Below are positions 2,793-63,895 of a stretch of DNA of 64,000 nucleotides, piece by piece. Origin of the DNA: a bacterium (GTDB lineage: Bacteria > Patescibacteriota > Microgenomatia > JAMCZE01). Under the pieces are notes generated by a model that saw only the letters and a program-made list of their open reading frames with translations, searched no databases and was not told the origin of the DNA. The position numbers and the translations under genes were made by a program. Numbering within the stretch: the stretch's first letter is position 1; each line of letters starts with the position of its first letter. The stretch is taken from contig JAKBJL010000002.1 in assembly GCA_021836035.1 (NCBI GenBank), positions 71,484 through 135,483 on the forward strand. Direction: 5' to 3'.

Positions 2793-2794
2793 AT

Positions 2795-5203: not shown

Positions 5204-5251
5204 TAATTAAGATAAATTATAGCTTAAATATTTTTATATCCAAAATATATA

Positions 5252-8190: not shown

Positions 8191-8219
8191 TCGTGTTCAA
8201 GAGATAAGATGAACCCTCA

Positions 8220-8864: not shown

Positions 8865-8866
8865 GT

Positions 8867-43535: not shown

Positions 43536-44388
43536 CGATTATTCCCAAGATAATCAATTGGCCACCCCCGACAATCAAAATGGAAAGCATGGGTCCGGAC
43601 CAACCCAAAATAGCGGTATGGCTGATAAACTTCTGATAGAAAACATCCAGAATTCCGGCTATAGCCCCCAGGGAAATAAGTAAGCCGAAGATAGTCGCCG
43701 CCCGCAGCGGTACGTAAGAAAAAGAAAACAGGGCATCAAACCCCATAGCAAGCAATTTCCGAAAGGTCTGCGGCGGTTTACCGGCAAACCGCTCCTGTTT
43801 CTCATAAACCAATTCCGTCTGGCGAAAACCGACCCATGCCCGCAGCCCCGCAACATAGCGGTTGCGCTCGGAGAGGGATACTAATATGTCCACCACGGGG
43901 CGGCGCATTACGGAAAAGGCTCCCACATTGGCGGGCATTTTGTATGAAGCCAGTCTGTCCATTAACAGATAGAAGGAACGGAAAAGGAACATTCTTAAGA
44001 GCGGGTCCCTGCGTTTATCATGGGTAGCCAAAACTACATCATAACCTTCGTTCAGTTTGGCAAGCAAGTTGGGAATAAACTCCGGAGCATCCTGAAGATC
44101 TCCGTCCATTAAAACCACTGTTTCTCCGCTGGTATTGTCCAGCGCCGCCGTAACCGCGGCTTCGTGACCGAAATTCCGGGAAAGAGAAACCACCCTGACA
44201 TTTTTGTCTCGTTCATGAATACTTTCCAGTTTAGCCAGCGTTGTATCCCGGCTGCCATCATCTACCGCTACGATTTCATAGCTTTTGCCCAAATCCTTAA
44301 GCACGACACTTACGCGGCGGTAAAACTCCTCCACGTTCTGTTCCTCATTATAAAAAGGCACCGCCACCGACAAGCTTAAATTGTTCAT
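43459..44388 (-). CDS. GT2 polyprenyl-phosphate glycosyltransferase, GtrB/ArnC type with C-terminal TM helices
   Basis: SVAVPFYNEEQNVEEF...IVAVDDGSRDTT...VVLMDGDLQDAPEFIP... matches the GtrB pattern. Two C-terminal hydrophobic helices (ATIFGLLISLGAIAGIL, LSILIVGGGQLIILGIIGEYI) are typical of bactoprenol-phosphate glucosyltransferases. Confidence 0.8.
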   Translation of the reverse strand: MNNLSLSVAVPFYNEEQNVEEFYRRVSVVLKDLGKSYEIVAVDDGSRDTTLAKLESIHERDKNVRVVSLSRNFGHEAAVTAALDNTSGETVVLMDGDLQDAPEFIPNLLAKLNEGYDVVLATHDKRRDPLLRMFLFRSFYLLMDRLASYKMPANVGAFSVMRRPVVDILVSLSERNRYVAGLRAWVGFRQTELVYEKQERFAGKPPQTFRKLLAMGFDALFSFSYVPLRAATIFGLLISLGAIAGILDVFYQKFISHTAILGWSGPMLSILIVGGGQLIILGIIGEYIGRIYDEVKHRPYYVVSQKIGF

Positions 44389-45281
44389 AAAAGCGGCAGT
44401 TTATTTCTTAATTTATAGTACAACTTTTTTAGGGGATTCGTGCTTTTAACCATTAGCCAGTAACGGAAGTCATGGGCGGTCTTTTTCGCCTCTATGGTAA
44501 TCTGGTCCATAAAATCGCCGCTATCGTAGGCGGTAAACCCCTGCATTTCCCATAGCTTAGCAAAAACAATTAAACGATTGGATGCTTGTAATAAAGAAAG
44601 AACCAAGCCATGCAGACCGTCTAAATAACCCTCCCAAAAGAAAAAACGCTTGAAGAACTCATCGGTGGGAAATTTAATAGCGTCCGACCAGACAACCCTT
44701 TCTCCCTTTTCCTTTAAATAGCGGGCATCATCCGTAGTATAGCGGTTCAGGCGGTCTACATACTGGAAGACGGAACTATAATGATTATGAACCAGGTCGC
44801 TTTTCAGGACTCCCGGATTCCCGACTATTTCTATCTGCTCATGAACCGATTTACAGGGATATTTACCCTTCCCCTTTTTAAACAATTTTATCTGGTAATC
44901 GGGGTACCATCCGGAATGTTCTATCCATTTACCGAAAATGTAATTTTTCCGGGGAATCTGATATCCGAAAGATTGCCCGTTACCGCTTATCACCTTCCTG
45001 ATTTCCTGCTCCAGATCCGCCGTAACCACTTCGTCCGCGTCCAGCTGTAAAATCCATTCCCCGCTACAGGCATCAACCGCTTTCTGCTTCGTCCGGTGGA
45101 ACATTTCCTGATGTTCCGTAATAAACACCTTATCGGTAAATTTTTTGGCGATAGCTACAGTTCCGTCCGAAGAGTTTTCGTCAAACAGCACAACTTCATC
45201 CGCCCATTTGACTGATGCCAGGCAGTCGGCAATATTATTTTCTTCATTGCGGGCGGCAATCGCCACCGATAGTTTCTTCAT
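44385..45281 (-). CDS. Glycosyltransferase family 2, WaaE/KdtX-like (paralog 3 of 3)
   Basis: KLSVAIAARNEENNIADCLASVKWADEVVLFDENSSDGT...WILQLDADEVVTADL.... Confidence 0.7.
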   Translation of the reverse strand: MKKLSVAIAARNEENNIADCLASVKWADEVVLFDENSSDGTVAIAKKFTDKVFITEHQEMFHRTKQKAVDACSGEWILQLDADEVVTADLEQEIRKVISGNGQSFGYQIPRKNYIFGKWIEHSGWYPDYQIKLFKKGKGKYPCKSVHEQIEIVGNPGVLKSDLVHNHYSSVFQYVDRLNRYTTDDARYLKEKGERVVWSDAIKFPTDEFFKRFFFWEGYLDGLHGLVLSLLQASNRLIVFAKLWEMQGFTAYDSGDFMDQITIEAKKTAHDFRYWLMVKSTNPLKKLYYKLRNKLPLL

Positions 45282-46729
45282 TTCCGGTATGCCTGATAAA
45301 TCAGATTAAAATTCTCGCGTATTTTTCTTCCGTCCAGTAACCAAATCGCCGATAAGTAAATTATAGCACCGGTAAGGCCCGCCAAAATGAAAGTGAGGTA
45401 GGTAACCGGCAAAAAGCGCCATAATCCCCAAAGCACCGCAGCCATAATAAGGCTGGCCAGGGCAGGTTTAAGAACGTTCCCCAGAAAATTAAACGTGACC
45501 ACCCGTTTGACCAGATAGATAGTCAGAAATATGGTTAAACTGACTACCAGGGGGGCGACGGCTACCCCGTTATACCCGTAGAGGGAAACAAAAAAGATGG
45601 TAAGCGGCCAGATAAGCAATATCCATAAAACCATCAGCCCCAGGGTTTTGCGGACATTGCCGGTCGCGTCTAAAGCATTAACTAAAATCCCGGAAAGCGA
45701 GGAAACCGCCGCCCCGGCCAGAAAAAAATAAAATAGCGGCAAACCCGGAGCCCATTTCTGGTATTTGGGTAAAAGGAAAAGCAGCTTGTCAATCAATACC
45801 GCCATGAGCGTCAGAACCGGAAACATGATCAGGCTCACCCCATATAAAGAGCGTTCAATCCCCGATTGTAATTTTCCCGCCTGATCCTGGACCCGCGCAT
45901 AGGTCGGAAAAGTAACTTTGGTTACGCTGCTGACAATAAAATTAAAAGGGCTATATGCCCACCTTTGCCACCAGCCGACATAACCCAATCCGACGGTTCC
46001 TACGGCAGGCAAACCCGAGAGAAAAACTACCAAAAGATTATCCTTAATCAAAGCCAGGCCGTTTTTGGCTTGATACATAATTCCGAAAGATAATAACCGC
46101 CGGGCCCGGCCCCAAGACAAACCGAAAGACACTTTCCAGGGCGACAGCAAATAATAAAGAGGCAAGCCTGCCAGGGCGGAAATAAGGTAAGCCCAGGAGT
46201 ATGCGGCCACCTGAAACTTATTATAAGCCAAAATCACGACGATCACGCTGAAAACAAATTGCTCCACGAGAGACGGAATAATCTGGGTTTCAAAAGCGAT
46301 TTTCCTCTCCAGGAGTATTGAGGGAATAGATTTCAGGGAAGAAATGAATAAAACCAGGAGAAAGACATAGTAAAGATTAATGCCGTCAGTTCCCAGCCGC
46401 GCAAAGGAAGCAATAAAAGGAGTTAAAAGCCATCCCACGGCGATGACCAGGAAAACAAGAATTTCCTGGAGCGTAAAGACGGTCCGGAGATCATTTTCTT
46501 CCAGGTTTTCGTGTTTCTGCACCAGCGCGGCTCCCAAACCCAGATCAACGAAAAAATTAAAGAAGGGGTAAATGGCGGAGACGGCAACATAAGTACCGAA
46601 GGCCTGCTGGGACAAAAACAATCCCAGAGGAATAAGCGTCAGCATGGTAATGACCTGGTTGATCATCTGCCGGCTTGTCAGGGCGACAATACTCCGGATG
46701 GTTTTATTTTTTATTTCTTCTGATTCCAT
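45278..46729 (-). CDS. wzx: Wzx-type oligosaccharide/polysaccharide flippase (MOP superfamily)
   Basis: The protein is 483 aa with about 12-14 helices. The N-terminal ...RSIVALTSRQMINQVITMLTLIPLGLFLSQQAFGTYVAVSAIYPFFNFFVDLGLGAALVQ... matches the Polysacc_synt family pattern. Confidence 0.7.
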   Translation of the reverse strand: MESEEIKNKTIRSIVALTSRQMINQVITMLTLIPLGLFLSQQAFGTYVAVSAIYPFFNFFVDLGLGAALVQKHENLEENDLRTVFTLQEILVFLVIAVGWLLTPFIASFARLGTDGINLYYVFLLVLFISSLKSIPSILLERKIAFETQIIPSLVEQFVFSVIVVILAYNKFQVAAYSWAYLISALAGLPLYYLLSPWKVSFGLSWGRARRLLSFGIMYQAKNGLALIKDNLLVVFLSGLPAVGTVGLGYVGWWQRWAYSPFNFIVSSVTKVTFPTYARVQDQAGKLQSGIERSLYGVSLIMFPVLTLMAVLIDKLLFLLPKYQKWAPGLPLFYFFLAGAAVSSLSGILVNALDATGNVRKTLGLMVLWILLIWPLTIFFVSLYGYNGVAVAPLVVSLTIFLTIYLVKRVVTFNFLGNVLKPALASLIMAAVLWGLWRFLPVTYLTFILAGLTGAIIYLSAIWLLDGRKIRENFNLIYQAYRK

Positions 46730-48443
46730 AAATTAATACCGCTAACCCTCCCAGGGAAATAAGAGACAGCGTATTCCCCGCAGTTCTTACCGGGGTATTT
46801 GTAAATTTCCCGGCAATCCCATGGTTCCCCGGGGGGACCATAACCGAGATCAGTTTATATTGATTGGCGTCGTTTATCGCTGCCGGCTTATTATCGATCC
46901 AAACTTTCCAACCGGGGAAATCAGCAAGATGGAACTGTAACTGCGCCCCGTAGGCAGAATTTCCGCTCAGCAAAAAACGATCCGGGGCGAATTGGGAGCT
47001 GCTTGGGGTAAAATCGCCGGATAAAATCCGGAATTTTTCGTTCCACGAAGGCGAAACAACCTCGTTTTCATTGATATCCACCAATACGGTTCCGAGGGGG
47101 CTAATTTTGGTAGCAATTCCAAAAGGCAGATACTCAAAAGAGCTGTTGCTGACGTGCCATTTAACCTGTTGGTCGGTTAGGAGACTGTTATCGGTGGCGG
47201 CGGTCAAATATTTTTGGGGTACAAAGAGTTTAGCGTTGTAAAAAAGTAGTCCGGCCAATACTACTATGGCAGTCAGTATCTTGAGATAAAACTTATTGAG
47301 CAGGAGAAACAGGGATCCGGCAAGCAAGGAGGCAAATAAGGCGGTAAACTCTAAAAAACGCCAGGGAAACTGCAGGTACCACAAGGGAGGAAGGTTATCC
47401 CAAATAAAGCCGGAATAAGCGGTGGTCATCCAGGCAGAAAAAATCAACAGCAAAAAGAGAGAAAACAGCAATCCGGCGGCTTTTTTCCGCTTTCTTAACC
47501 ACAACCAGATAGCGGCGGGTAAGGAAAGAAAAGCCAAAATTAAATGCAGCTTGCCGATTTTAAAAGACATCCCGTCCAGGCAGCCCGGCCCGGATCCCCC
47601 GTAACCCCAAAGGCTGTTCCAGAGTTGTTCAGGACAGACAAAATGAATCCGATAAGAAGCCAGGTTTTTAATCAGCAATTGGTCCACTAGGGTATCTTGT
47701 TTTTCGGTAAGCGCGGGCAGCCAAAAAAAAGCCGTCAGCGAGAAAGTAATAAAAGTTAAAAGCAAATAGCTAAAAGCAAATAGCTTGATGTTCCCTTTAC
47801 CGTAAATCAAATATATAAGTACATACCAGAGGGAAAATACACCAAAAAAGGGCAGGAATACTAAATTGTGGGTAATCATGAGAAGTGCAAAAAATATTCC
47901 CGTTAATACGGCCCATTGCCACTTCCCTTCTTTAATTAGCTTATAGGAAGTTAAAAGAATTAAGGGGAGCCAGACAAAGGAGAAGAGTTCCGCCAGGGCG
48001 CCGCGGACGTAGGCGTCCACGGCGTGGTAAGGCGCGTAAAGATAAAACAACGCGGCAACTCCTCCTCCTATCCGACCGAAAAGTTCTTTCGCCAGCAGGT
48101 ACATTGAGACCACCGATCCGGCGAGAGCCAGGAACCAGACAATTTTTGTGGAGTCCAAAAATCCCGTTCCCAAAAACAGGTGTACGGCCTCTCCCAAGTA
48201 GTAAACCAAAGGCGGGTAAAAATTAAAGAGGGGATAACCAAGCCCGAAGCCGAGATCCGGTACCCAACGAACCGGGAATTGGCCGGCAGAGAGCGATTTG
48301 TCCAGCTGCGCGAGACGCGCTACCTGTTGGTCATCATGCATGACAAAATAGCCCTGATGCACCAATGGCTGCCAGGCAAAATAACTTAATACCAAAACTG
48401 CCAATAAAATCCCCAGGCCGCGCTTGTTTAATAGGATATTCAC
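46704..48443 (-). CDS. Polytopic membrane protein, short YfhO-related family, paralog S2
   Basis: ...FVMHDDQQVARLAQLDKSLSAGQFPVRWVPDLGFGLGYPLFNFYPPLVYYLGE... and the C-terminal ...FPGWKVWIDNKPAA...TNTPVRTAGNTLSLISLGGLAVLIYG are shared with 21237..22919 and 48440..49984. Confidence 0.5.
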   Translation of the reverse strand: MNILLNKRGLGILLAVLVLSYFAWQPLVHQGYFVMHDDQQVARLAQLDKSLSAGQFPVRWVPDLGFGLGYPLFNFYPPLVYYLGEAVHLFLGTGFLDSTKIVWFLALAGSVVSMYLLAKELFGRIGGGVAALFYLYAPYHAVDAYVRGALAELFSFVWLPLILLTSYKLIKEGKWQWAVLTGIFFALLMITHNLVFLPFFGVFSLWYVLIYLIYGKGNIKLFAFSYLLLTFITFSLTAFFWLPALTEKQDTLVDQLLIKNLASYRIHFVCPEQLWNSLWGYGGSGPGCLDGMSFKIGKLHLILAFLSLPAAIWLWLRKRKKAAGLLFSLFLLLIFSAWMTTAYSGFIWDNLPPLWYLQFPWRFLEFTALFASLLAGSLFLLLNKFYLKILTAIVVLAGLLFYNAKLFVPQKYLTAATDNSLLTDQQVKWHVSNSSFEYLPFGIATKISPLGTVLVDINENEVVSPSWNEKFRILSGDFTPSSSQFAPDRFLLSGNSAYGAQLQFHLADFPGWKVWIDNKPAAINDANQYKLISVMVPPGNHGIAGKFTNTPVRTAGNTLSLISLGGLAVLIYGIRRNKK

Positions 48444-49984
48444 TGCTCGTCTTTAGCTAACTTCTTATTGTAGGCTTTCAGAAGAAAAAATAATAATCCC
48501 CCCAGGCTTAATAAACTTACTAAATCAGCCAATTGTCTTACGGGAGTTTCCCGGAAACGGGCGTTTATCTCATGTTCTCCCACCGGTATACTAATATCCA
48601 GAAACCCCTCGTTTTCATAACGGATATTTACCGGTGCTCCGTCGACTAAAACCTGCCAGCCGGGAAAATAAATCCTGTTAATCCGCAATTTTAAAGGGGT
48701 ATCAGCAATTACCTGTCGATCGGAAACAATAGTCCCCATGCCCGATAAGATCGTTAATTTACCCGGCGGCAAGGTTAAAAATTCATTCTTCACCCAGCGA
48801 CTCAGGTATTCATTCTTAACCGTGGTCGTATCGTCTTTTCCGGTATAGTAAGTTTCCGGATAAAAGATTTTATCGATTTTATAGCTTTGAAGCCCGTTGA
48901 TTATGATAATACCCATGACAAGCAACACTGCCGGCCATTTTCCCCATCGCTTTATTACCGCACCGGCAAGAACCGATCCCAGAAAAACCGTGACCGAAAG
49001 AAAGCGCCAGGGAAACTGGACCAGCCGGGGTAAAAATCCGTATCGCCAAACAGGAGTAAATAACGGCAGGGCGGGGACAAGCGATAATATTGTCAGCGCA
49101 ATTAAAATAAATAAAGATCGGTTATGGTTCTTAACGGCGATCAGCAATGCCGCAAGGACCGCGAATGGCAAAGCAGGACCCAATAAATAATTAAGATTAT
49201 CCGGGTAAAGAAAATAATTTTTAAACTCGGCAATCTGCACACTTGCGGCCCGGGTATATTGCAGATCATAAAATGCCGGCAGCCAGAAAAACGTTGTTAA
49301 ACCGACGCCAAGCGCCAGGGAAACAACCTCCAGGACAAATCCGGAAACATCCCGGTCTTTTTTAGTTAACGGCTGGAGGACAAAAAGAACGATCAGCGGA
49401 GTGAAAATAAAAGCCAGGACATTATGCGAAGTTATTAAGGCGGCGTAAAAAAAAGCGCCCAAAGCGATATCGACCCCGCGGTGTTTTTCCCTGACGCGAA
49501 AGAGGTAATAAATAATCAACGGGAGAAAAATAAAAGCCAGCGCTTCACCCAACGACCCGCGTTTATAAACGTCAAATACCCGGTAGGGAGCGTAGGTATA
49601 AAGAACGGCCGAAACCAACCCGGCTTTTACACCCCATTTGGAAGCAACCAGACGGTACATGGCAAAAGCAGAGAGCAGAAAGCTTAAGGCAAAAAGCAAC
49701 TTTATCGAATCCATAAAGGAAAAACCCGCCAGATGGATTAATTCACCGATATAAAAAGGCAACGGATAGAGAAAATCCAATACGGGATAGCCATACCCGT
49801 GGTTGATCGTTTCCAGAAAACGCACGGGAAACTGCCCGGTTTTGAGGGTTTCATGAAACGCAAAAAGACGGGTAATCATAAATCCACCGTCATCCGTCCG
49901 AAAAAAACCCGCGGTAAGAATCGGCTGGATAAGCGGAAGCGTAAACAGGAAAAGCAACAGTAAGGGCATCAACTTCTTGATCAT
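48440..49984 (-). CDS. Polytopic membrane protein, short YfhO-related family, paralog S3
   Basis: ...FFRTDDGGFMITRLFAFHETLKTGQFPVRFLETINHGYGYPVLDFLYPLPFYIGE... and the C-terminal ...YFPGWQVLVDGAPV...RFRETPVRQLADLVSLLSLGGLLFFLL. Confidence 0.5.
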   Translation of the reverse strand: MIKKLMPLLLLFLFTLPLIQPILTAGFFRTDDGGFMITRLFAFHETLKTGQFPVRFLETINHGYGYPVLDFLYPLPFYIGELIHLAGFSFMDSIKLLFALSFLLSAFAMYRLVASKWGVKAGLVSAVLYTYAPYRVFDVYKRGSLGEALAFIFLPLIIYYLFRVREKHRGVDIALGAFFYAALITSHNVLAFIFTPLIVLFVLQPLTKKDRDVSGFVLEVVSLALGVGLTTFFWLPAFYDLQYTRAASVQIAEFKNYFLYPDNLNYLLGPALPFAVLAALLIAVKNHNRSLFILIALTILSLVPALPLFTPVWRYGFLPRLVQFPWRFLSVTVFLGSVLAGAVIKRWGKWPAVLLVMGIIIINGLQSYKIDKIFYPETYYTGKDDTTTVKNEYLSRWVKNEFLTLPPGKLTILSGMGTIVSDRQVIADTPLKLRINRIYFPGWQVLVDGAPVNIRYENEGFLDISIPVGEHEINARFRETPVRQLADLVSLLSLGGLLFFLLKAYNKKLAKDEQ

Positions 49985-52353
49985 TTATTTAGCCGGCTCC
50001 TTTTTTGCCGGAATATTTCCCAAAGGATTCCTCCCACGATGACTAACAAACCCAGGGCAGTCAGCAACCCGCCGTAACGGAAACTTTGAGGGTCATAATT
50101 AAATTCGACGGTATGTTTTCCCGCCGGTACGGGTACAGCCCGGAAAGCATAATCCGCCCGATAAATTTTAGTTCCCCGGCCGTCAATCATCGCCTGCCAG
50201 CCGGGAAAATAAGTGTCGGAGAGAAATAGCAATTTGGGCTTGTCCGCCCTGGTTTCAATTACCACTTTATCGGGTTGGTATTTAATAATCTTCACCGAGG
50301 CTGCGCCTCCTTCTGAGGGGACCAGGCCTGGTTCTTCTTCCAGAATCAAAGTGGAACGCAGATTTGCACCCGGACGATAAATTGCTGCGAGAATTTTTCC
50401 CGGATCCTTCTCTACCAGGTAGTTGTCGGCCAGAAAAGCCCGCGGCAGGACAGTTTTGCGCTCGTAGGCTTTCCATTTAAAATTCTGCCAAAAAAGCGCA
50501 TATTTCTGCGGAGAAAATTTCGCCGTTTCCGGTTCCCAATTGGATTGGGGAAAATCATTCTTATCTAAAATATATTTCACTCCCAAAAGATCAAAAAGTC
50601 GGTTGCGGTAAGCATTATCCTGCGAGGGGAAAACGGCATCTGAACGCAAGACCGACCGGGGGAACTTTCCGTCAGCAGCGGAAGCTAACAATTCTCCGTA
50701 GCGCTTGATATAGAGCGAATCCCATCCCTCAGGGGAATAAACAGCGAAATAAGTCGTAAAATTATTATCGATGTAAGCCGTACCGAAGCCGTAAAAACGG
50801 TCTAAACCCGCTTTCTGCTGTAAAAAATTCGTGACCGGATGATGGGGAAAAACAAATTTCTCCGGCGCAAAGGGCTGGTATTTATTAAAAAAATAAGCAT
50901 ACTCTAACACGGCCAGGGTCGTCAAAACTCCGGCGGATAGCCAAATTATTTTCCGGCGGATTTTAACCGCTAGAAACGCTAAAGCCGTTATCACAAAAGT
51001 AGCGCTGGGCAGAAGCAAATTATTACGGGCGATGCGGAATTCCCAGGTGTGGTGCCCCAAAACTACGACCCACAACAGCAAATATGCCAAGCCGACTGCG
51101 GCTATCGGAAAAATAATATTTCTGTCCGTCTTTTGCTCTGTCCACCAACAATGGAAACCGTATGCCGCAAGGACCACCGCCGAGAATTGGAAAATAAAGA
51201 GGCTGCGCGCCGGTACCCCGGTGGCTAAAATAGGAATACGCAGAAGATGCGGCAGATAAACCAGCGGCGCCAAAGCGAAAAGTAAGCCGACAACTCCCAG
51301 GATAAAGAACAATTTCATCTCCTTGACCGCTAAACTCCGGACCGCCCCGATCAGGGTGAAAACAAAGGCGACAACTCCGAAATAAACCTGGAAATCACCG
51401 TACTGCTTGCCCCAAAAATTTCCGCTCGCCGGATTGCCGAAAAAATCCGGAGCCAGAATAGTAATTAAATTAGACCAGGGGAGGATAAAAGGGGCGAAAA
51501 GCTGCCGTGTTGCTTCCCCTTCCCGGGCGGAATGCAGATATATTTCCAGAGTCGGCAGCAACTGGATTGCCCCGATAAGAAAGCCGCATCCCAGACAAAA
51601 AGCAATTTCTCTAAGCGTCAGTTTCCGCAAGAACATATAAGGGACGGCTATTATCAATAAATAGATATAGGTTTGGGCATGCCCTCCGAAAATGGCAAAA
51701 GCGAATAAAAGCGGCAGGAAAAGCAAATAGATTAAGCGGCGTTTGTTACTGTATTGATTGACCACCCAGAGAATCAGCGGTAGAAAAAGCACGACCTGGC
51801 TGATGATCAGTTGCTCGTGCCATACCACCAGGTAGCCGATATTGGCCATGGCAATGCCCCCGAAAACCGCCGCGGGGCGGGAAAGTTTCAGGGAACGGAA
51901 AAAAAGATAAGTAAACACCGTCAGCAAAAAAGGAAGAGATATAACCAGAGCAATCCAGGCCTTAAGGGTAGGTAAGCATAAGAAAAGGACATTGCCCGGA
52001 AAGAAGATCGAAGATTGCAGGTCGGCAATTAAAGGATAGCCGGAAAAATTATAAGGATCCCAAAGCGGCCAGCGGAAATTTCTGATTTGTTCAAAAGCGA
52101 AAACCTTCCAGGGATACATCTGGCGGATCACATCCGCGGCAATTACCGCTTTATGGGTTGTCCAGGAATTGTACCCGGCGAACCCTCCGGAATTCCAGGG
52201 AAAGAAAAAGGAAACCAGCAAATCTCCGGGAAAAGGAAGCAAACCTTTAAAATAAAACTGCCAGAATACGGCCAGATGGGCAAAAAGAATTATCAGTCCG
52301 ACCAGAACTATCTGGTAGCGGCGAACCAGCTTTTTAATAACAGCCATAGCCAT
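49981..52353 (-). CDS. YfhO-family GT-C membrane glycosyltransferase, paralog Y2
   Basis: The protein is 790 aa. ...LLPFPGDLLVSFFFPWNSGGFAGYNSWTTHK...LWDPYNFSGYPLIADLQSSIFFPGN... and the C-terminal ...YFPGWQAMIDGRGTKIYRADYAFRAVPVPAGKHTVEFNYDPQSFRYGG... match the family. Confidence 0.65.
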   Translation of the reverse strand: MAMAVIKKLVRRYQIVLVGLIILFAHLAVFWQFYFKGLLPFPGDLLVSFFFPWNSGGFAGYNSWTTHKAVIAADVIRQMYPWKVFAFEQIRNFRWPLWDPYNFSGYPLIADLQSSIFFPGNVLFLCLPTLKAWIALVISLPFLLTVFTYLFFRSLKLSRPAAVFGGIAMANIGYLVVWHEQLIISQVVLFLPLILWVVNQYSNKRRLIYLLFLPLLFAFAIFGGHAQTYIYLLIIAVPYMFLRKLTLREIAFCLGCGFLIGAIQLLPTLEIYLHSAREGEATRQLFAPFILPWSNLITILAPDFFGNPASGNFWGKQYGDFQVYFGVVAFVFTLIGAVRSLAVKEMKLFFILGVVGLLFALAPLVYLPHLLRIPILATGVPARSLFIFQFSAVVLAAYGFHCWWTEQKTDRNIIFPIAAVGLAYLLLWVVVLGHHTWEFRIARNNLLLPSATFVITALAFLAVKIRRKIIWLSAGVLTTLAVLEYAYFFNKYQPFAPEKFVFPHHPVTNFLQQKAGLDRFYGFGTAYIDNNFTTYFAVYSPEGWDSLYIKRYGELLASAADGKFPRSVLRSDAVFPSQDNAYRNRLFDLLGVKYILDKNDFPQSNWEPETAKFSPQKYALFWQNFKWKAYERKTVLPRAFLADNYLVEKDPGKILAAIYRPGANLRSTLILEEEPGLVPSEGGAASVKIIKYQPDKVVIETRADKPKLLFLSDTYFPGWQAMIDGRGTKIYRADYAFRAVPVPAGKHTVEFNYDPQSFRYGGLLTALGLLVIVGGILWEIFRQKRSRLNK

Positions 52354-54653
52354 AAGAAAAAACCCAGGCCGGAAATAATTGCACCCGCTAAAAACGATAG
52401 CGGACGATAGGCAAATAAAACCATCTGCTCGCCCGCGGGAAGAGCAACCGCACGGAAAGTATAATCGGCCCGCAATACCGTCCAGGGAATGCCATTAACC
52501 TCGGCCTGCCACCCGGGATAAAAAGTATCGGATAAAAAAAGAAGTTTTGGTTTATCTGTCCTGGTTTTGATCATAACTTCTCCGGGTCCGTAAGAAATTA
52601 TTTCCGCAGAAGCAGCGCCGCCCGCTTCCGGTTTAATACCCGGCTCCCCCTCTAAAATTAGGCGGTTATGATAATCAAAAGCCGGGTCATACAATCTTTT
52701 AATTATCTCCCCTTTTCCCCTAATTATCTCATAATTGCCGGTTAAAAACGCCCGGGGCAGGGCGGTTTTTCTTTCGTAGGCTATCCATTTGTCCTGTTTC
52801 CAGGCGAGGGTATAAAGCTCCGCCGGGAATTTACCCCTGTCGGGTTGCCAATCGGGTTTGATATCTTCCTTTTTATCCAATAAGTATTTAACCCCAAGCA
52901 AATCCAGCAGCCTTTCTTTGCCGGGGCTCTCCGACGGGGGCAGCATGGCATCTGCGCGGGAAAAATCCTGCGTCGCTTCGCCCTTTTGGGACGCAGCCAG
53001 TAACTCTCCGTACCGGCGGATATACAACGGATCGTAGCCCTGGGGATCATAGATGCCGTAATAGGTTGCAAAATTAACATCTATTTGCGCCGTCCCCTGC
53101 CCGGCAAAACGGTTAAAACCTGCCGTCTTTTGCAGAAATTGCAAGACCGGATGCTCCGGATAGGCAAATGCCTGCGGCGCAAACGGCTCAATTTTATTAA
53201 AATAACGGGCATACTCCCAAATCGCCAAAGTAAAAATCGCCAGCGCCGCGAAATACCACAATCTCCGAATTGTCCCCGGTATAGCTAAAATAACCACCGT
53301 GAGGATAAATATTCCCGAAGGCAAGAGAAGATTACGGCGCGAAACGGCCAGCTGTTCGCCCCCTTTTATAAAAACAAAGAGCCAAAGTATCAGATAAGAG
53401 AGGAAAAGCAGCAAAAGAGGGCGGCTGATTTCTTTAAGGACCGCCCCTCTCTTTTTGAGCCACCAATTCAAACCGTAAGCCGCGAGAATACAAAAACCGA
53501 ATTGAAAAAGAAAAATCGTCCGGGCGGCGATACCCGTAGAAAAAATCGGGATCCGCAAGATTATGAAAAGATAGGCCAGCGGAGCAAGAGAAAAGGCTGC
53601 TCCCAAAAAGGAAAGCAGCAAAAAAAAGCGCACATTCCGGTCCGATCCGGATTTAACGATTGCCAGCAAAGCAAAGACTAAAGCGACAATTCCGACATAG
53701 GTCAGCGAATTATGATAATCCCAACCCCAGAAATTCCCCGTCACCGGATTGCCGAAAAAATCCGGTGCCAAGATAGTAATTAAATTACGCCAGGGGAAAA
53801 TATGTTCCGCAAATAATTTAGCGGTATTTGCTCCCTCCCGGGCCGAAAAGAAATATAGCTCCAGGGAGGGTCCCAGTTGTATAGCCGCCAGGATCAGAGA
53901 AAAAAAGACCGTAAAAAGCAGCCACTTTATAGGCACCCGGCGAAACAGAGCAAATAAAAATATAATGGCGTAAAAATACAAGGCCGTCTGGGCGTGGCCG
54001 CCGAAAACAGCTAAAGTCAAAACCGGGGCTAAAAGCAGGAGATAAAAATTCCACTGTTTTTCCCGATATTTGTTGACCAGCCATAGACCCAGCGGTAAAA
54101 ATAACAGCGTCTGGGTAATCACCAGCAGCTCATGCCAGTTAAGAAGATAGGTGATATTGGATACCGCCAATCCCCCGAAAGCCGCAGCGAGGGCTGATAA
54201 ACCCTGCGAGCGCAGAAAAATATAAGTGAAGATTCCGAGCAGAAAAAGCAAAGTCAATACCTGTAAAATCCAGGCGGACAGCGGCGGCATCAGAAAATAA
54301 AAAATATTTCCGGGGAAAAACACCGACGACTGGAGATTGGCTAATAAAGGCGTTCCGGAAAAGTTGTAAGGGTTCCAAAGAGGAAAATGTCCTGCCAGGA
54401 TCTGTTCCATCACCAAATTCTTCCAGGGGAATAATGCCCGGATGGCATCTGAAGCGATTAACTCCTTGTGGGTTGTCCAGGAGTTGTATCCGGCAAACCC
54501 CCCGGAATTCCAGGGAAAATAAAAGGAAACCAGCAAGTCTCCGGGGAAGGGAAGCAAACCCCGGAAATAAAACGGGCGGAAGGAGATAATATTTGCGGCA
54601 ACTAAAAAAAGAACCGGCCAGTGCTGCTTAATAAGATTTTTAAGAAAAGACAT
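52308..54653 (-). CDS. YfhO-family GT-C membrane glycosyltransferase, paralog Y3 (recent tandem duplicate of Y2)
   Basis: ...LLPFPGDLLVSFYFPWNSGGFAGYNSWTTHK... and the C-terminal ...FYPGWQAEVNGIPWTVLRADYTFRAVALPAGEQMVLFAYRPLSF.... It is about 70% identical in protein to Y2, with roughly 85-90% nucleotide identity over patches. The start is placed at MSFLKNL (54653) by alignment to Y2. Confidence 0.65.
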   Translation of the reverse strand: MSFLKNLIKQHWPVLFLVAANIISFRPFYFRGLLPFPGDLLVSFYFPWNSGGFAGYNSWTTHKELIASDAIRALFPWKNLVMEQILAGHFPLWNPYNFSGTPLLANLQSSVFFPGNIFYFLMPPLSAWILQVLTLLFLLGIFTYIFLRSQGLSALAAAFGGLAVSNITYLLNWHELLVITQTLLFLPLGLWLVNKYREKQWNFYLLLLAPVLTLAVFGGHAQTALYFYAIIFLFALFRRVPIKWLLFTVFFSLILAAIQLGPSLELYFFSAREGANTAKLFAEHIFPWRNLITILAPDFFGNPVTGNFWGWDYHNSLTYVGIVALVFALLAIVKSGSDRNVRFFLLLSFLGAAFSLAPLAYLFIILRIPIFSTGIAARTIFLFQFGFCILAAYGLNWWLKKRGAVLKEISRPLLLLFLSYLILWLFVFIKGGEQLAVSRRNLLLPSGIFILTVVILAIPGTIRRLWYFAALAIFTLAIWEYARYFNKIEPFAPQAFAYPEHPVLQFLQKTAGFNRFAGQGTAQIDVNFATYYGIYDPQGYDPLYIRRYGELLAASQKGEATQDFSRADAMLPPSESPGKERLLDLLGVKYLLDKKEDIKPDWQPDRGKFPAELYTLAWKQDKWIAYERKTALPRAFLTGNYEIIRGKGEIIKRLYDPAFDYHNRLILEGEPGIKPEAGGAASAEIISYGPGEVMIKTRTDKPKLLFLSDTFYPGWQAEVNGIPWTVLRADYTFRAVALPAGEQMVLFAYRPLSFLAGAIISGLGFFLWLWLLLKSWFAATR

Positions 54654-56833
54654 AAGGTTACCGCCAACCCTACAGTGCTTAGCCACAAGCCGTAACGAAA
54701 ACTGTCCGGTTCGTAGCTAAATACTACCTCATTTTGACCCGGGGGTACAGATACCGCCCGGAAAGCATAATCCGCCAGCAAAATTTTTGTGGCTTTGCCC
54801 CCGACCGTTGCCTTCCACCCCGGATAATAGGTGTCGGAGAGGAAAAGCAAACTCCGGCCGGGGGAGTCGGTCTTTATGGAAACTTTCCCGGGGGTATAGT
54901 TTGTAATTTCCGCGGTACCCGGGCCGATTACCCCGGATAACGGTTCGTTTAGTATCACTGTTTTGCTTAGGTCCGTTGCCCCGGCATAAAAAGTTCTGAT
55001 CGTTTCCTCTTTACGTCTGACCAGATAATTTTCCGCTAAAAAGACCCTGGGCAAAGCTTCCCGATTTTCATAAACGGCTGCTTCTCCCCAATGTTTTAAA
55101 AAATTAAACTGCTCCGGAGGATATTTCAGCAAATTCGGTTTGTCGGTTTCTTGCGGATTTTCGGCCCGGTCGAAGAAGTACTTAACTCCCAATAAATTTA
55201 ATAATTTACGGCGATAGGGGGTATCCGCTTCGGTTAAAAAAATATCCGCCCGGTTTACTTTCTCCGGAATTGTCCCCGTCTCCGCCGAAGCGATCAATTG
55301 GCCATACCAGCGCGGCGATAGACTATCGTAACCCTCCGGACTATAAATCCGGTAGAAAGTAGCAAAATTGGTAGCGAAGCGGGAGGAACCATATCCGAAA
55401 ACCCGGTTATATCCGCCGTAATTTTGCACAAAACCCAGCAGGGGATGACGGGGATAAAAATACTTGCTGTCTCCGAAGGGGCTGACCTTTAAAAGAAAGA
55501 TACCCCCGCTGACCAGCAGCAGAAGAAGCACGGCTCCGGAAAATAATTTCCGGGGAAGTAGCAGGCTGAAGATAAAGAGCAAAAGCCACGCCAGCTGTAA
55601 TAAAGTGTTGCGGACCGCCGTCGACGATTGCCGCCCGAAAAACAGAAGTCCTAACGCCGCTGCTAAAATTATCAGTGTGATGGGAAGAACGCGGCGGGGG
55701 TTTTTCGGCAAAACTTTATTTAATCCCCAGCCAGCCAGAACCGCGGCGGCAAATTGAAAAAGAAAAAGGCTGTTCCAGGGGCCGCCGCTGGAGAGAATCG
55801 GGATACGCAAAAACCTCGGCAAGTAAGCGATCGGATTCCGGAAAGAGAGTAATAAACCGGCTGCGGCTACGGCAGCCCAAAAGGCGATTTCCTTCTGCTT
55901 TCTCAGGGAGAACAACGCGTAAACGGCAAAAATCAGCGGGATAACCCCGAAATAAGCGTTTACCCCGCTGTAATCCTGTCCGCCTTCGTAATTATTGGTT
56001 GCCGGACTGCCCCAAAAGTCCGGAGAAATTATTTGCACCAGGTGCTTCCATTCGACAATTGAACCGTTATAGGCATCATTTGTAGCTTTCCCCTCCCGCA
56101 GCGAGTTTTGGTAAAGCTCGGCTGTCGGCAACAGCTGCACGGCACAAACCATTAGCGTTAATAAAACCGCCGCTGTTAACGGCAGCATTCTTTTTATGCC
56201 CGCCCGGAATAAAAAATAGCTGCCGGCGATGAGAAATCCGAAGACAGCATCCTGCGGATACCCTCCCAGAACGTTCAAAACCAATAGCGGCGAGAGAAAG
56301 GCGATGAATTTTAACCCGCCTATCTTGGTATCTGCGAACTTATCCACCACCAGAAGTTCCAGCGGCAGCCAAATTAAAGGGTGCAGATACACCCCCCAAA
56401 AATAGCGGGTGGCAAAAAAGGCGCAAAAGATCAAAGTCAATGCTCCGAAAAGGGCAGCCGTTTTTGACTGCAGTTTATTTTTAAGAAACCAGAACATAAA
56501 AATGCCCGCTAAAACCGGTTGGGAAAATATATAAATAGACCAGGCAGCTATTGCCGGCAGGAAAAGAAATCCCCAGCTTAGGGGATAAAAAACCGAAGAC
56601 TGGAAATTAGCCAAGAGCGGCTGACCGGAAAAGTTATAAGGGTTCCAAAGGGGCCATGTTCCCTGCCGCAAAAGGGAAAAAGCATATTCTTTCCAGATAA
56701 AAATCTGGCGCAGGGCGTCAACCGCCAGCAATTCTTTATGTGCCACAAAAGGGGTAAAGCCCGGCCAGGAGGGCGTATTCCAGGGGAAAAACCAGAAAGG
56801 CAAAAGATTGGTCTGTAAAGGCAACCAGTTCAT
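54602..56833 (-). CDS. YfhO-family GT-C membrane glycosyltransferase, paralog Y4 (lacks the N-terminal helix seen in Y2/Y3)
   Basis: The protein is 743 aa and begins directly at MNWLPLQTNLLPFWFFPWNTPSWPGF..., which corresponds to residue ~35 of Y2/Y3. The C-terminal ...YYPGWKATVGGKATKILLADYAFRAVSVPPGQNEVVFSYEPDSFRYG... matches the family. It overlaps the upstream gene by 4 nt. Confidence 0.6.
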   Translation of the reverse strand: MNWLPLQTNLLPFWFFPWNTPSWPGFTPFVAHKELLAVDALRQIFIWKEYAFSLLRQGTWPLWNPYNFSGQPLLANFQSSVFYPLSWGFLFLPAIAAWSIYIFSQPVLAGIFMFWFLKNKLQSKTAALFGALTLIFCAFFATRYFWGVYLHPLIWLPLELLVVDKFADTKIGGLKFIAFLSPLLVLNVLGGYPQDAVFGFLIAGSYFLFRAGIKRMLPLTAAVLLTLMVCAVQLLPTAELYQNSLREGKATNDAYNGSIVEWKHLVQIISPDFWGSPATNNYEGGQDYSGVNAYFGVIPLIFAVYALFSLRKQKEIAFWAAVAAAGLLLSFRNPIAYLPRFLRIPILSSGGPWNSLFLFQFAAAVLAGWGLNKVLPKNPRRVLPITLIILAAALGLLFFGRQSSTAVRNTLLQLAWLLLFIFSLLLPRKLFSGAVLLLLLVSGGIFLLKVSPFGDSKYFYPRHPLLGFVQNYGGYNRVFGYGSSRFATNFATFYRIYSPEGYDSLSPRWYGQLIASAETGTIPEKVNRADIFLTEADTPYRRKLLNLLGVKYFFDRAENPQETDKPNLLKYPPEQFNFLKHWGEAAVYENREALPRVFLAENYLVRRKEETIRTFYAGATDLSKTVILNEPLSGVIGPGTAEITNYTPGKVSIKTDSPGRSLLFLSDTYYPGWKATVGGKATKILLADYAFRAVSVPPGQNEVVFSYEPDSFRYGLWLSTVGLAVTLCLFLKILLSSTGRFFF

Positions 56834-58638
56834 TTATCCGTTACTAAGGAAACCAGATCGGTATTCGCCGGTACTTCCGCTTCGATCAGGCGGAAAGCGG
56901 GAGTATTATCAGGATAAGAGATAGTTTGCCAGACTTTCATCCGCGGCCTGACTTCCGCAGGTTTATAACTCCTTTGAAGATCCCCTTTAATAAAACCGGG
57001 CGGCAAATCTTCATCCCAGTCGATAAGCAGCAGGCGCTTAGACGGTGCCTCAAGAAAACGCGAGGCGTCATAAATTTTACCCCAGGCAATCGATCCGGGA
57101 AAATAATAATTCGCAAAACTGCGGACATGAACAAAACCCTCGCTGGTTGCCGGATACCTTACGGCCTCTTGCCAGTAAAGTGCGGGCGGAAAACTCTGAT
57201 AAAAAAGGAAAAAAATGTAAGGCGAACGGTCGGGATGAGGTACCACGACCATATCAAATTCCTTTTGCCGGCTGATTGCCGATTTCACCGCTTCTCTTAA
57301 GCCATAATTCCAGGCTCCGGCGCGCTGGGCCGCTTCCAGGGGTCCGTAATTCCAAATCTCGGGAGATGTTTGGGGGAAGTGCACAAAATAAGCATCCACA
57401 AAAAGCAAATTGCCGTATATATAGGCGCCGCCCAGAAACGCCAGGCCGGCCAAGGACAGAACCCGGGACAAATTTCTTAATATCCGGTAAATAAACAACA
57501 ATCCGTAGGCGGAAATGAGGGGAATTACTCCCGCGGCGAAAATCGACCGGCTGAAATGGGGCGCATCCCGGGTTATGGTTGCCGGCAACGGAGCTAACAG
57601 CAACCACGAAAGTAAAATCCATTTATTAGACAGCCGGCTATTTAACAAACCTAAGATCCCGGCAAGAAGCAAAAAGTAATCGAGGTAATTTAAGTTGCCC
57701 CGATCGGGAAGATTATGTTGAATGTTAGTACCGCCGCCTTCTACTAAAAATTGGGGCGAGAAAAAGTTGAGATAATTATTGGCGGATTGCTGCAGCATAT
57801 AAACCAGTCGGTTGTGAAGCAGGGGAACCAGCGGCTCCAATATTCCGTGCGGTTGACTACGCGGTAAATCAATAATTTTATTTAATTGAGCCCGGTCGCT
57901 TAATAAGCCGATTCCGGAAATTTTCACCACATCCGCCCCGGTTAAAGTGGTCAGTAAACTTAAGGCCCACAAAACGATAAAAACTAGCCCGGTTGTTAGG
58001 CTTAACCAACCCCGCGGCAGATTTTTCCTTTGCAGAAAGAGAAAAATAACCAGGAATGCCGGAATGAAAACATGGCTGGCATGATAGGAAAAAAGGGTAG
58101 CGGCCATTAGTAAAGCCGATAAAACCAGTAAAACACGGTGCCTGTCAGAATCATAAAAAGAAAGCACAGCGCCTAAAAATAAAGCCAAAGCAAAGTTTGC
58201 TTCATAAGCCGCCCTGCTGAAAAAAACGCTCCAGGGCAAAAAAGCGAAAAGGGCTGCCGAAATCAGCGCCAAAATATCCCGGTATTTATCCTCCGGATAG
58301 ATTTTGCGGGCCAGGAAAAAAAGCAGAATAACGCTAAGTACCCCGGAGGTGGCGGATACAAAGCGAACGGCAAACTCCGTTAAAGAAAACAGCTTTACCG
58401 CCGGAATAGTAGCAAAAACGTAAAGCGGCAATTTCCAGTCGCCGAAAGATTCGAGCGACAACGGAAAAAACCGCCCGTACTCATCCCGGCCGGTGGTTAA
58501 GAGGGAATAGGCCGTGTAGCCGATTGAGGCCTCGTCGCGGTTTAATCCTACCGGAACGGTCCCCAGCTCGTAAAAACGCAATAATATAGCCATCAGCAGG
58601 ACTAACCCCAGGGAAAAACCCAGCAATTTTTTGCTCAT
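56830..58638 (-). CDS. GT-C glycosyltransferase, PMT_2/ArnT family, paralog A5
   Basis: ...LRFYELGTVPVGLNRDEASIGYTAYSLLTTGRDEYGRFFPLSLESFGDWKLPLYVFA... carries the family motif. The protein is 602 aa with a C-terminal soluble domain. Confidence 0.7.
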   Translation of the reverse strand: MSKKLLGFSLGLVLLMAILLRFYELGTVPVGLNRDEASIGYTAYSLLTTGRDEYGRFFPLSLESFGDWKLPLYVFATIPAVKLFSLTEFAVRFVSATSGVLSVILLFFLARKIYPEDKYRDILALISAALFAFLPWSVFFSRAAYEANFALALFLGAVLSFYDSDRHRVLLVLSALLMAATLFSYHASHVFIPAFLVIFLFLQRKNLPRGWLSLTTGLVFIVLWALSLLTTLTGADVVKISGIGLLSDRAQLNKIIDLPRSQPHGILEPLVPLLHNRLVYMLQQSANNYLNFFSPQFLVEGGGTNIQHNLPDRGNLNYLDYFLLLAGILGLLNSRLSNKWILLSWLLLAPLPATITRDAPHFSRSIFAAGVIPLISAYGLLFIYRILRNLSRVLSLAGLAFLGGAYIYGNLLFVDAYFVHFPQTSPEIWNYGPLEAAQRAGAWNYGLREAVKSAISRQKEFDMVVVPHPDRSPYIFFLFYQSFPPALYWQEAVRYPATSEGFVHVRSFANYYFPGSIAWGKIYDASRFLEAPSKRLLLIDWDEDLPPGFIKGDLQRSYKPAEVRPRMKVWQTISYPDNTPAFRLIEAEVPANTDLVSLVTDK

Positions 58639-62593: not shown

Positions 62594-63895
62594 TCAGAAA
62601 TTTTTAACTACCTTAATATCCCCGAAAGTTGCCCCGCTTTCAGAGCTTAAATCCCCGGGGAGAAAGAGGGTGTAACGGGAATTAACAGCGCCGGATTGAG
62701 CCTGAGGATCGCGTAGCCAAAACAGGTAGGGAAAACCGTTATTTAATCCCGGTGCCGCCATAACCCCGTAAGTCACCTGGGGGCACTGACAGTTTGCCAA
62801 AACATAATTTACCGCCCGCTCTTTAGAAAGGAGGCTATAGGGATTTGCCGCGACCATAAAACTCCTGAGATTAAGATAAAAAAACACCGCGGCTGCGATT
62901 GGCAATAACGCCCGTCCGACCCCGCTTCCGGCCAGACGACGGGCGAGGGTAGCGTAAATTAAAATAATCGCGGGAAAAGTTAACAAAAAATAATATTCCG
63001 GAACGGGACCGGGATAAAAAGAGAACACTAAAAGCGGGACGGCGATCCAGATTAAATATTCCCGGATGTGCTGCCGGGCCAACCATATTACCGCCGCTAT
63101 CATAATTATCCCCTGCCAGGCACCCGGTAAGCCGAAAATGGCCAAAAAATTCTGGATATTAATCCTGGCCAGGAGCAGCATTTTAAAAATAAACGGATAA
63201 GCTGCGCCCGGCTGCGCGCCCGCCGTAAAAATCTCCCCAAATCTCTGAACCTCCCCGAATCCGTGCCTCAGTTCAAAAAGAAGCGAAGGCAGGATAAGGA
63301 GGATAAAACCGGCTAACCCCAGATAAACCGAGCTACGGGAGGCTTTGAATTTATGGCCCAAGCCCTCCGCAAGAGATACCGGCAACATTAACATTCCGGT
63401 AGGATGAAAATTCCAGCTGACGCCTGATAATAAGAAACTCACGGGGATATTCTGCCGGAATTCCCAGGCTAATAACGCCAGGAAAATCAAGGGATTGGAA
63501 GGCGCGCTACCCCGGTCTACTAAAATAATCCGGAAGGAAAAAATATAGATAAAGAGGGCCCATATCCCGCCGAGCCGATAGATCAAAACCATGCTCCCGA
63601 GAGCGAAAAACATCTGCAAGACATTTCCCGCTAACGGGTTCATTCCCCCCAGAAAATAAAAAACGCTTAACAGGTAATAATACCCCGGGCCGGTAAATAT
63701 CCCGCCGAGGGAAATTTGCTGCCCGATGAGGGAAATTTTATGATCCACTAAAAAACTTTTTATCCACCAAGCGGCAGCTTCCTGGTCAAAATCAAAGCCG
63801 GCAAAGCGCTCAATTTGATAAAAGCGAATAGCTAAACCCAAAGCCATAAATCCGGCCGCCAAAAAAAACTTCAGAAAACGCTTATTTTTAATCAC
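62594..63895 (-). CDS. Polytopic membrane protein, FGFDQ-motif family (putative GT-C), paralog F3; GTG start or 5' end outside window
   Basis: ...IRFYQIERFAGFDFDQEAAAWWIKSFLVDHKISLIGQQISLGGIFTGPGYYYLLSVFY.... The codon at 63893-63895 is GTG. The frame stays open to the window edge (no in-frame stop in 63896-64000), so the true N-terminus is uncertain. Confidence 0.4.
   Translation of the reverse strand: MIKNKRFLKFFLAAGFMALGLAIRFYQIERFAGFDFDQEAAAWWIKSFLVDHKISLIGQQISLGGIFTGPGYYYLLSVFYFLGGMNPLAGNVLQMFFALGSMVLIYRLGGIWALFIYIFSFRIILVDRGSAPSNPLIFLALLAWEFRQNIPVSFLLSGVSWNFHPTGMLMLPVSLAEGLGHKFKASRSSVYLGLAGFILLILPSLLFELRHGFGEVQRFGEIFTAGAQPGAAYPFIFKMLLLARINIQNFLAIFGLPGAWQGIIMIAAVIWLARQHIREYLIWIAVPLLVFSFYPGPVPEYYFLLTFPAIILIYATLARRLAGSGVGRALLPIAAAVFFYLNLRSFMVAANPYSLLSKERAVNYVLANCQCPQVTYGVMAAPGLNNGFPYLFWLRDPQAQSGAVNSRYTLFLPGDLSSESGATFGDIKVVKNF

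Follow-up and report, generated by a model that had tools for sequence, protein, structure and literature searches.

In Bacillus subtilis, the GT-C enzyme YfhO is needed to decorate lipoteichoic acid with N-acetylglucosamine, and the proposal is that it takes the sugar from a C55-P-sugar by extracellular transfer; of its roughly 13 transmembrane (TM) helices, the last two flank a large extracytoplasmic domain (PMC5836110). That members of the family use C55-P-sugars to modify polymers or proteins of the cell envelope on its outside is known only genetically, through work on B. subtilis, Listeria and streptococci (PMC5836110, PMC12041528). The family is further characterized by a genomic association with a GT2 polyprenyl-phosphate glycosyltransferase of the CsbB/GtlA type. 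In streptococci, PgfM1 and PgfM2 are YfhO-type enzymes of the Pgf pathway of protein O-glycosylation (PMC12041528), and represent a case of two YfhO-type paralogues in one operon and one pathway (10.1101/2022.10.10.511621; PMC12041528). In the solved structures of GT-C glycosyltransferases, two juxtamembrane helices lie between the first TM helix (TM1) and TM2 (AftD study, 10.1101/2019.12.22.885152). Here, we analyze four YfhO-type genes, called Y1 to Y4, in a stretch of 64,000 nucleotides of contig JAKBJL010000002.1 (assembly GCA_021836035.1, a Microgenomates metagenome-assembled genome, MAG, of the Patescibacteria), referred to as the window throughout.

Y4, Y3 and Y2 are adjacent and transcribed in this order, inside a run of minus-strand genes that extends from about 9.9 kb to the window end, and Y1 stands apart as a more distant paralogue (Table 1). 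The best explanation for the whole, to which we assign a probability of about 0.8, is that Y4, Y3 and Y2 are three co-transcribed and ancient YfhO-type GT-C paralogues, that Y4 belongs to a conserved type lacking TM1, and that the overlaps between the genes couple them. A first-pass annotation of the window had singled out the four open reading frames (ORFs) for their YfhO-type features. All four are indeed present on the minus strand and score 41.9-97.9 bits with the profile hidden Markov model of Pfam family YfhO (PF09586), above its gathering cutoff of 28.5 bits; 'YfhO family protein' is also the NCBI name of their homologues.

Y1-Y4 resemble B. subtilis YfhO in passing the Pfam threshold, in having about 13-14 TM helices and a large outer domain, and in the presence of GT2 genes in the same cluster, for example 36045..36746 and 36730..37695, which adjoin Y1, and 43459..45281. 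They differ from it in that the similarity is distant, in the absence of TM1 from Y4, and in their host, a Patescibacteria MAG that may not make lipoteichoic acid. Moreover, csbB-yfhO of B. subtilis is a two-gene operon, whereas here four YfhO paralogues occur among about 18 GT-C genes. The likeness to PgfM1 and PgfM2 of Streptococcus mutans lies in these being the sole NCBIfam matches of Y1, Y2 and Y4, and in the presence of paralogues in one operon, but the streptococcal proteins are longer (model lengths 955 and 884).

The most distinctive member of the array is Y4. Its sequence opens with MNWLPLQTN, at a point about 35 residues into Y2, and at this end Y3 and Y1 are as long as Y2. The first-pass annotation had noted this late start and the missing helix, and the junction bears it out: an in-frame TAA abuts the ATG with no codon in between, and the ATG overlaps the stop codon of the upstream PMT_2-like gene, whose product has a soluble, non-hydrophobic C-terminal tail. 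The 19-residue hydropathy profile of Y2 peaks at residues 9-17; in Y4, no such window exceeds 1.6 before residue 85, and the first 31 residues are uncharged.

We found the same start point, within a few residues, in 15 full-length homologues from various metagenomes that are 41-57% identical to Y4 (proteins P0002-P0017 make up the Y4-type set, of which the N-terminally truncated P0015 is not among the 15). They share the beginning M(x0-5)PL(P/Q/H)TNL.P.W.FPW, and nearly all of the approximately 100 more distant homologues listed are longer at the N-terminus by 25-45 residues, which make up TM1. Upstream of the Y4-type start, an in-frame stop is found at a distance of 0, 2, 4, 4 and 6 codons in five of six loci; in the sixth (L002) it is 41 codons away and the intervening peptide is highly charged. 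No hydrophobic or TM-like peptide is encoded in any of the three frames over the 240 nt upstream of the start in these six loci; the first-pass annotation had proposed such a reading of the upstream frames, and for Y4 it yielded only the in-frame TAA and no helix. In two loci (L006 and L008), the Y4-type gene is separated from the gene before it by only about 53 nt, and the upstream neighbour in L008 is divergent. An upstream exon, a frameshift or an alternative start restoring TM1 was considered as well, and is excluded by the three-frame reading.

A sequence search of the Protein Data Bank with Y2 returned nothing at E <= 1, so that a search by fold was needed. The AlphaFold2 (AF2) models of Y4 and Y2 have predicted local distance difference test (pLDDT) scores of 92.4 and 92.5, respectively, and match element for element except for the extra Y2 helix at residues 2-36, in which TM1 is formed by a helix at 2-29 and another at 31-36. 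Helices 43-49, 73-91 and 129-154 of Y2 correspond to helices 10-14, 38-56 and 94-120 of Y4, and the models contain 14 TM helices in Y2 and 13 in Y4, with a mixed alpha/beta domain of about 260 residues before the last one. The Y4 model matches solved GT-C glycosyltransferases: AftD (6wbx), STT3B (6s7t), Pmt4, PglB (5ogl) and ArnT (5f15) share its fold at sequence identities of 8-13%, and differ in that Y4 starts after the position of TM1. Y2 displays the complete GT-C succession of TM1, a loop with juxtamembrane helices and TM2, and Y4 has the loop helices and no TM1.

All 22 columns that are invariant in an alignment of 45 family members are conserved in Y4 as well, among them Asp39 and Asp272. 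The former is the invariant acid of the A-x-D-x-x-R-Q helix that follows the PFPGD motif; placed as it is in a helix of the first extracytoplasmic loop, it is a candidate catalytic or donor-binding residue. The PFPGD motif itself (Y2 residues 40-44), a loop-1 motif that is otherwise highly conserved, reads PLQTN in Y4 (residues 5-9), and its Asp, which is replaced by Asn in Y4 and by Asn or occasionally Glu in many full-length members, is unlikely to be a catalytic base given this alignment. We considered the Asp-to-Asn change (QTN) as a possible sign of inactivation of Y4, and rejected it because full-length members vary too and Asp39 is kept.

These results bear on whether Y4 might be a decaying or truncated copy, or a gene whose true start and TM1 lie elsewhere owing to a mis-called start, a frameshift from the upstream gene or a split gene. 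Such a reading can appeal to the roughly 35 N-terminal residues by which Y4 falls short of its paralogues and to the overlap of its ATG with the stop of the upstream gene. We regard it as very improbable, in view of the intact ORF of 743 residues, the 15 homologues that match Y4 in length as well as in start, the retention of every family-invariant residue, the confidence of the structure model, the nearby upstream stops in five of six loci and the lack of any TM-like upstream peptide. The upstream gene of L008, divergent and only about 53 nt away, and the soluble tail of the upstream protein in the window speak equally against it. The first-pass annotation had offered a decaying copy or a variant topology, and it is the latter that stands. 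By all the comparisons above, Y4 is a member of a small conserved subfamily without TM1 and not a decaying copy. This subfamily has lost the canonical first TM helix and starts directly at the first extracytoplasmic loop.

Y4-type genes form one clade with 100% bootstrap support (here and below, trees were built by neighbour-joining only, with 200 bootstraps). They appear to be rare: among 1.84 billion representative sequences, the subfamily amounts to two clusters at 50% identity (P0016 and P0017), compared with 2,476 representatives of the YfhO-like family at E <= 1e-30. The exact Y4 protein is recorded on NCBI contig DAHXMT010000003.1 (assembly GCA_027371575.1), and named relatives come from Microgenomates/Patescibacteria MAGs. 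A scan of the species-representative genomes of GTDB gave only one close Y4-type locus, L009, with the same protein as L002. Many MAG records with close homologues (L009, L012, L015-L018 and others) are titled 'uncultured Gammaproteobacteria bacterium', and these titles look unreliable; the N-terminus of the L009 protein is that of a protein assigned by NCBI to a Microgenomates MAG. A limited literature search found no paper on TM1-less GT-C enzymes or on YfhO proteins in Patescibacteria.

Outside the Y4 clade, we observed other singletons of the YfhO-like family that apparently lack TM1 (P0030, P0215 and P0222), with starts such as MLFPIPSNEF..., MPADTMVAAYYPW... and MPFPADNLLG.... P0030 (locus L087, 1301..3619) is separated from its upstream gene by a 6-nt gap, and no YfhO gene comes after it. 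These proteins may have lost TM1 independently, or be artefacts of gene calling.

Loss of a single TM helix raises the question of how Y4 is oriented in the membrane. Counting lysine and arginine (K/R) residues in short loops gives 14 inside versus 5 outside for Y4 with its N-terminus out, and 23 inside versus 1 outside for Y2 with its N-terminus in. The N-terminus of Y4 is thus inferred to lie outside the cell, preceded by no signal and forming a tail of about 90 residues. E. coli ProW reportedly translocates an N-terminal tail of around 100 residues without a signal peptide. The likeness to Y4 is in the long signal-less N-out tail before the first TM helix, and since the two families are unrelated, ProW offers a topological precedent only.

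Concerning the age of the array, the first-pass annotation had described the three genes as recent tandem duplicates, with Y2 and Y3 about 70% identical in protein. We measured 49.6-49.8% protein identity between Y2 and Y3, 36.5% between Y2 and Y4, 37.1% between Y3 and Y4, and approximately 31-32% between Y1 and any of the three. At the DNA level, Y2 and Y3 are 57% identical over the entire codon alignment, the best long blastn segment reaches 68% over 524 nt, and the longest exact match is 22 nt. Their synonymous divergence (dS, Nei-Gojobori) is saturated at about 2.1, with a nonsynonymous divergence (dN) of 0.46; dS for pairs involving Y4 or Y1 is above this value or not calculable, the overall range being 2.1-4.0. 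Where Y2 and Y3 have the same amino acid, the codon is the same in 48% of cases, against a background of 42-48% in every paralogue pair. The high DNA identity and low synonymous divergence by which recent duplicates are recognized are therefore not seen in Y2 and Y3.

The relationships with other genomes point the same way. In other metagenomic contigs, the locus has the order methyltransferase, PMT_2-like gene, TM1-less YfhO gene, one or two full-length YfhO genes, PTPS_related gene and, further on, flippase. A triple array is present in L002/L003 and L088, and a single full-length gene follows the Y4-type gene in L004/L005, L006, L007 and L008. A full-length YfhO gene comes directly after the Y4-type gene in all seven loci, the PTPS_related gene follows the YfhO genes in the same seven, and the PMT_2-like gene occupies the same upstream place in L002, L004 and L088. 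Yet the Y4 orthologues of these syntenic loci are just 41-57% identical. In the trees, Y3 groups with the middle genes L002_B and L088_B (96% bootstrap), and Y2 groups with L088_C and the single-copy L008_B and L004_B (96%); Y2 and Y3 are sisters in none of the 200 replicates and are not each other's closest relatives. This positional orthology, together with the synteny, places the duplication of Y2 and Y3 before the split of these genomes. Y2-Y4 are, on the strength of trees and gene order, ancient paralogues in a vertically inherited array, each with its own orthologue in related genomes.

That Y2, Y3 and Y4 would be recent tandem duplicates, and active substrates for homologous recombination or gene conversion, deserves hardly any credence in light of these data. 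Adjacency, membership in one family and a patch of about 100 nt with 87-88% identity would fit it; the overall divergence of Y2 and Y3 in DNA, protein and synonymous sites, the short longest exact match, the closer orthologue of each gene elsewhere, the failure of Y2 and Y3 to pair in any bootstrap replicate and the synteny of the array across genomes diverged to 41-57% identity do not. The recent origin proposed by the first-pass annotation, and the part it had assigned to these genes as recombination substrates, therefore have to be given up.

The patch itself merits closer attention, as it was the origin of that proposal. The first-pass annotation had quoted stretches of 85-90% DNA identity between Y2 and Y3. 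Such a level is reached in a core of 99-106 nt (87-88%), but this is the only patch of its kind and the best 33-codon window of the pair, and over the aligned windows of 131 nt the identity of the quoted stretch is 79%. The patch encodes LLPFPGDLLVSF(F/Y)FPWNSGGFAGYNSWTTHK, a motif with 94% protein identity in this pair and nearly invariant across the family, and it has a dN of 0.04 and a dS of 0.66, versus a dS of 2.1 over the whole gene.

One possible explanation is that a short gene-conversion tract homogenized codons ~30-70 of Y2 and Y3 on top of their ancient divergence. Within the genome the patch is 87% identical, versus 65-77% in all between-genome comparisons; the residues AGYNS are common to Y2 and Y3 alone, and the low dS of the patch would also be expected. 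Moreover, patch sites at which Y2 equals Y3 outnumber those at which Y3 equals its orthologue by 16 to 6, compared with 334 to 344 elsewhere (post-hoc Fisher p = 0.049). However, the patch was picked post hoc as the maximum of the gene, and scans with permutation, which correct for this choice, gave p = 0.11-0.15 for the clustering of identical codons and p = 0.57-0.82 for same-genome site patterns (four-taxon/triplet) in the patch region. The motif is also near-invariant in the proteins of the family, and the codon bias of the genome is common to both genes. We therefore consider a conversion tract improbable, and the search for recombination that the first-pass annotation had called for gave no significant signal in these scans. 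A near-invariant protein motif combined with shared codon usage, and not recent common ancestry, is to judge from these alignments a sufficient explanation for the patch.

The junctions between the genes are unusual in their own right. The first-pass annotation had reported long out-of-frame overlaps of 46 and 52-85 nt, and these hold: the Y3/Y2 overlap measures 46 nt, and the Y4/Y3 overlap 52 nt if Y3 starts at the ATG at 54653, or 85 nt with an alternative GTG at 54686 that adds 11 residues (792 residues in total). The ATG is favoured by the N-termini of orthologues, and with it the length of Y3 matches that of L002_B. Between this ATG (codon 1) and the LLPFPGD motif, Y3 has no further start-type codon, and a start after the stop of Y4 would leave 14 codons; before the same motif, Y2 has ATGs only at codons 1 and 3.

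Overlaps of this kind are found in most related loci. Nine of ten YfhO-to-YfhO junctions from seven genomes overlap by 34-58 nt. Eight junctions in six genomes were read at the sequence level, of which seven overlap, all in the same relative frame and usually with one ATG available. The two junctions of L088 overlap by 43 nt each, and that of L007 has a 6-nt gap and no overlap. The Y4-type gene overlaps the downstream full-length YfhO gene by 40-58 nt in six of the seven loci. Starting after the upstream stop would leave just 14-21 residues before LLPFPGD, and since such later starts would truncate TM1 and drop its K/R-rich cytoplasmic anchor, the overlaps are genuine and conserved. K/R-rich cytoplasmic tails are in fact encoded in both overlapping frames. 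Ribosome reinitiation at start codons located upstream of a stop has been described, and most likely the overlaps couple the translation of the paralogues.

Conserved adjacency and coupling also invite a stronger proposal, in which Y4-type proteins would be non-autonomous and act as obligate partners (catalytic, scaffold or pseudo-enzyme) of the downstream full-length YfhO, which would compensate for the missing TM1, by analogy with Pmt1-Pmt2. The Pmt1-Pmt2 heterodimer (6p2r) is a pair of paralogous GT-C proteins, but serves as an analogy only for Y4 and its full-length neighbour, as both Pmt subunits have TM1. A dependent Y4 would account for the full-length YfhO gene found directly after the Y4-type gene in seven of seven loci, and for the 40-58-nt overlap in six of them, with one relative frame in the junctions read at the sequence level; against this, a pseudo-enzyme is hard to reconcile with the complete set of invariant residues in Y4, the TM1-less P0030 has no YfhO gene behind it, and tight overlaps are common across the whole cluster. 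We find this proposal doubtful. Its fullest form, equally doubtful in our opinion, would make of the Y4-type proteins a GT-C lineage without TM1 whose extracytoplasmic N-tail of about 90 residues carries no signal, and which is translationally coupled as a partner to the downstream YfhO in a heteromeric GT-C machine for surface glycosylation in Patescibacteria.

Under the reading that we prefer, that of ancient and coupled paralogues including a conserved TM1-less Y4, the system can be described as follows. The adjacent and co-transcribed genes Y4, Y3 and Y2 encode GT-C membrane glycosyltransferases and belong to a Microgenomates cluster for glycan biosynthesis that exceeds 55 kb. Except for TM1, Y4 keeps the GT-C fold, with 13 TM helices of which the last is preceded by the large outer domain, and it is probably an active enzyme with its N-terminus outside the cell. 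With a polyprenyl-phosphate-sugar as donor, each paralogue may glycosylate an acceptor on the cell surface, polymer or protein, at the outer face of the membrane, the donors being supplied by GT2 enzymes of the cluster, and the paralogues may differ in specificity, each adding a different sugar or linkage. The overlaps place the start of each downstream gene within the codons for the K/R-rich cytoplasmic tail of the upstream gene product.

A number of points weigh against this reading. The functions of Y1-Y4 are all deduced from homology, and the Pfam score comes mostly from the C-terminal ~80 residues plus part of the membrane domain. The NCBIfam matches to PgfM1/PgfM2 are far below threshold, with 22-40 bits here versus equivalog cutoffs of 1400-1500 bits, which makes Y1-Y4 distant YfhO-like proteins. 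It is unusual for an extracytoplasmic N-tail of about 90 residues to have no signal. The trees are limited to neighbour-joining and are poorly supported at deep nodes. Finally, in the codon alignment of Y2/Y3 with L002_B/L002_C, four-taxon nucleotide patterns grouping the genes by genome (112) are nearly as many as those grouping them by orthology (120), versus 63 for the third pattern, and the excess over the latter lies mostly at third codon positions; this could be due to some concerted evolution or to convergence in composition or codon bias.

Table 1. Coordinates of the YfhO-type genes, their junctions and the features discussed in the text (positions in the window)
Feature	Coordinates	Strand	Description
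Y4	54602..56833	minus	743 aa; YfhO-family GT-C glycosyltransferase without TM1; Pfam YfhO 97.9 bits; transcribed first of the trio
Y3	52308..54653	minus	781 aa from the ATG; full-length YfhO-family; Pfam YfhO 41.9 bits
Y2	49981..52353	minus	790 aa; full-length YfhO-family; Pfam YfhO 91.5 bits
Y1	37710..39953	minus	747 aa; distant fourth YfhO-family paralogue with TM1; Pfam YfhO 68.8 bits
Y4 start junction	56830..56836	minus	in-frame TAA 56836..56834; ATG 56833..56831 overlapping the upstream TGA 56832..56830; read from the sequence
Y4 Asp39 codon	56717..56719	minus	equals Asp74 in Y2; invariant in 45- and 43-sequence alignments; in Y4 helix 38-56
Y2 residues 2-36	52246..52350	minus	cytoplasmic K/R-rich tail and TM1; without counterpart in Y4; AF2 helices 2-29 and 31-36
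Y4/Y3 overlap	54602..54653	minus	52 nt, out-of-frame; Y4 3' end with Y3 5' end
Y3/Y2 overlap	52308..52353	minus	46 nt, out-of-frame; Y3 3' end with Y2 5' end
Y2 patch	52147..52245	minus	Y2 codons 37-69; conserved loop-1 motif LLPFPGDLLVSFFFPWNSGGFAGYNSWTTHK; 87-88% DNA identity to Y3
Y3 patch	54462..54560	minus	Y3 codons 32-64; counterpart of the Y2 patch
Upstream PMT_2-like GT-C gene	56830..58638	minus	602 aa; Pfam PMT_2 27.9 bits; ATGA overlap couples it to Y4
Downstream PTPS_related GT-C gene	48440..49984	minus	514 aa; Pfam PTPS_related 48.7 bits; syntenic end of the YfhO block

The array itself is ordinary, surface-glycosylation enzymes having duplicated long ago and then diverged, and its interpretation as a recombination hotspot should be dropped. 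What is new, to a modest degree, is a GT-C subfamily without helix 1. Conserved and apparently functional as it is, this subfamily shows that TM1 is dispensable for the fold, and it poses a concrete question of membrane insertion. Furthermore, some 18 GT-C genes in one run represent a large share of coding capacity devoted to outer-face glycan assembly in a small-genome Microgenomates, which is striking for Patescibacteria and bears on the surface biology of these uncultured and probably host-attached bacteria.

The remainder of the window gives the setting of the array. From 8867 to 64000, and continuing past the window end, the minus strand is nearly all one glycan-assembly supercluster. It includes about 18 GT-C-type membrane glycosyltransferases (11 PMT_2-like, 3 PTPS_related and the 4 YfhO), at least seven GT4 and about eight GT2 genes, methyltransferases, and a Wzx-type flippase (45278..46729). 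The PTPS_related (PF10131) protein encoded directly downstream of Y2 has a second match, to the final ~40 positions of the YfhO profile, which cover the YFPGW...VDG beta-sandwich motif, and the YfhO and PTPS_related GT-C families appear, at the level of these profiles, to share a C-terminal module. Five ORFs of 412-574 residues in the cluster (62594..63895, 41811..43535, 29465..30832, 26727..27965 and 22916..24370) have no Pfam match at E <= 0.01, and may represent further divergent membrane glycosyltransferases or polymerases.

The first part of the window (1..10000) has a GC content of 0.37-0.39, versus 0.45-0.50 in the remaining window. It carries a Wzm/Wzt-type ABC-transporter glycan pathway (1533..2792, with ABC_tran and Wzt_C domains, and 2795..3613, ABC2_membrane), along with GT4 and GT2 genes, an epimerase/dehydratase and an FkbM methyltransferase. 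This low-GC segment may be a separately acquired or variable module.

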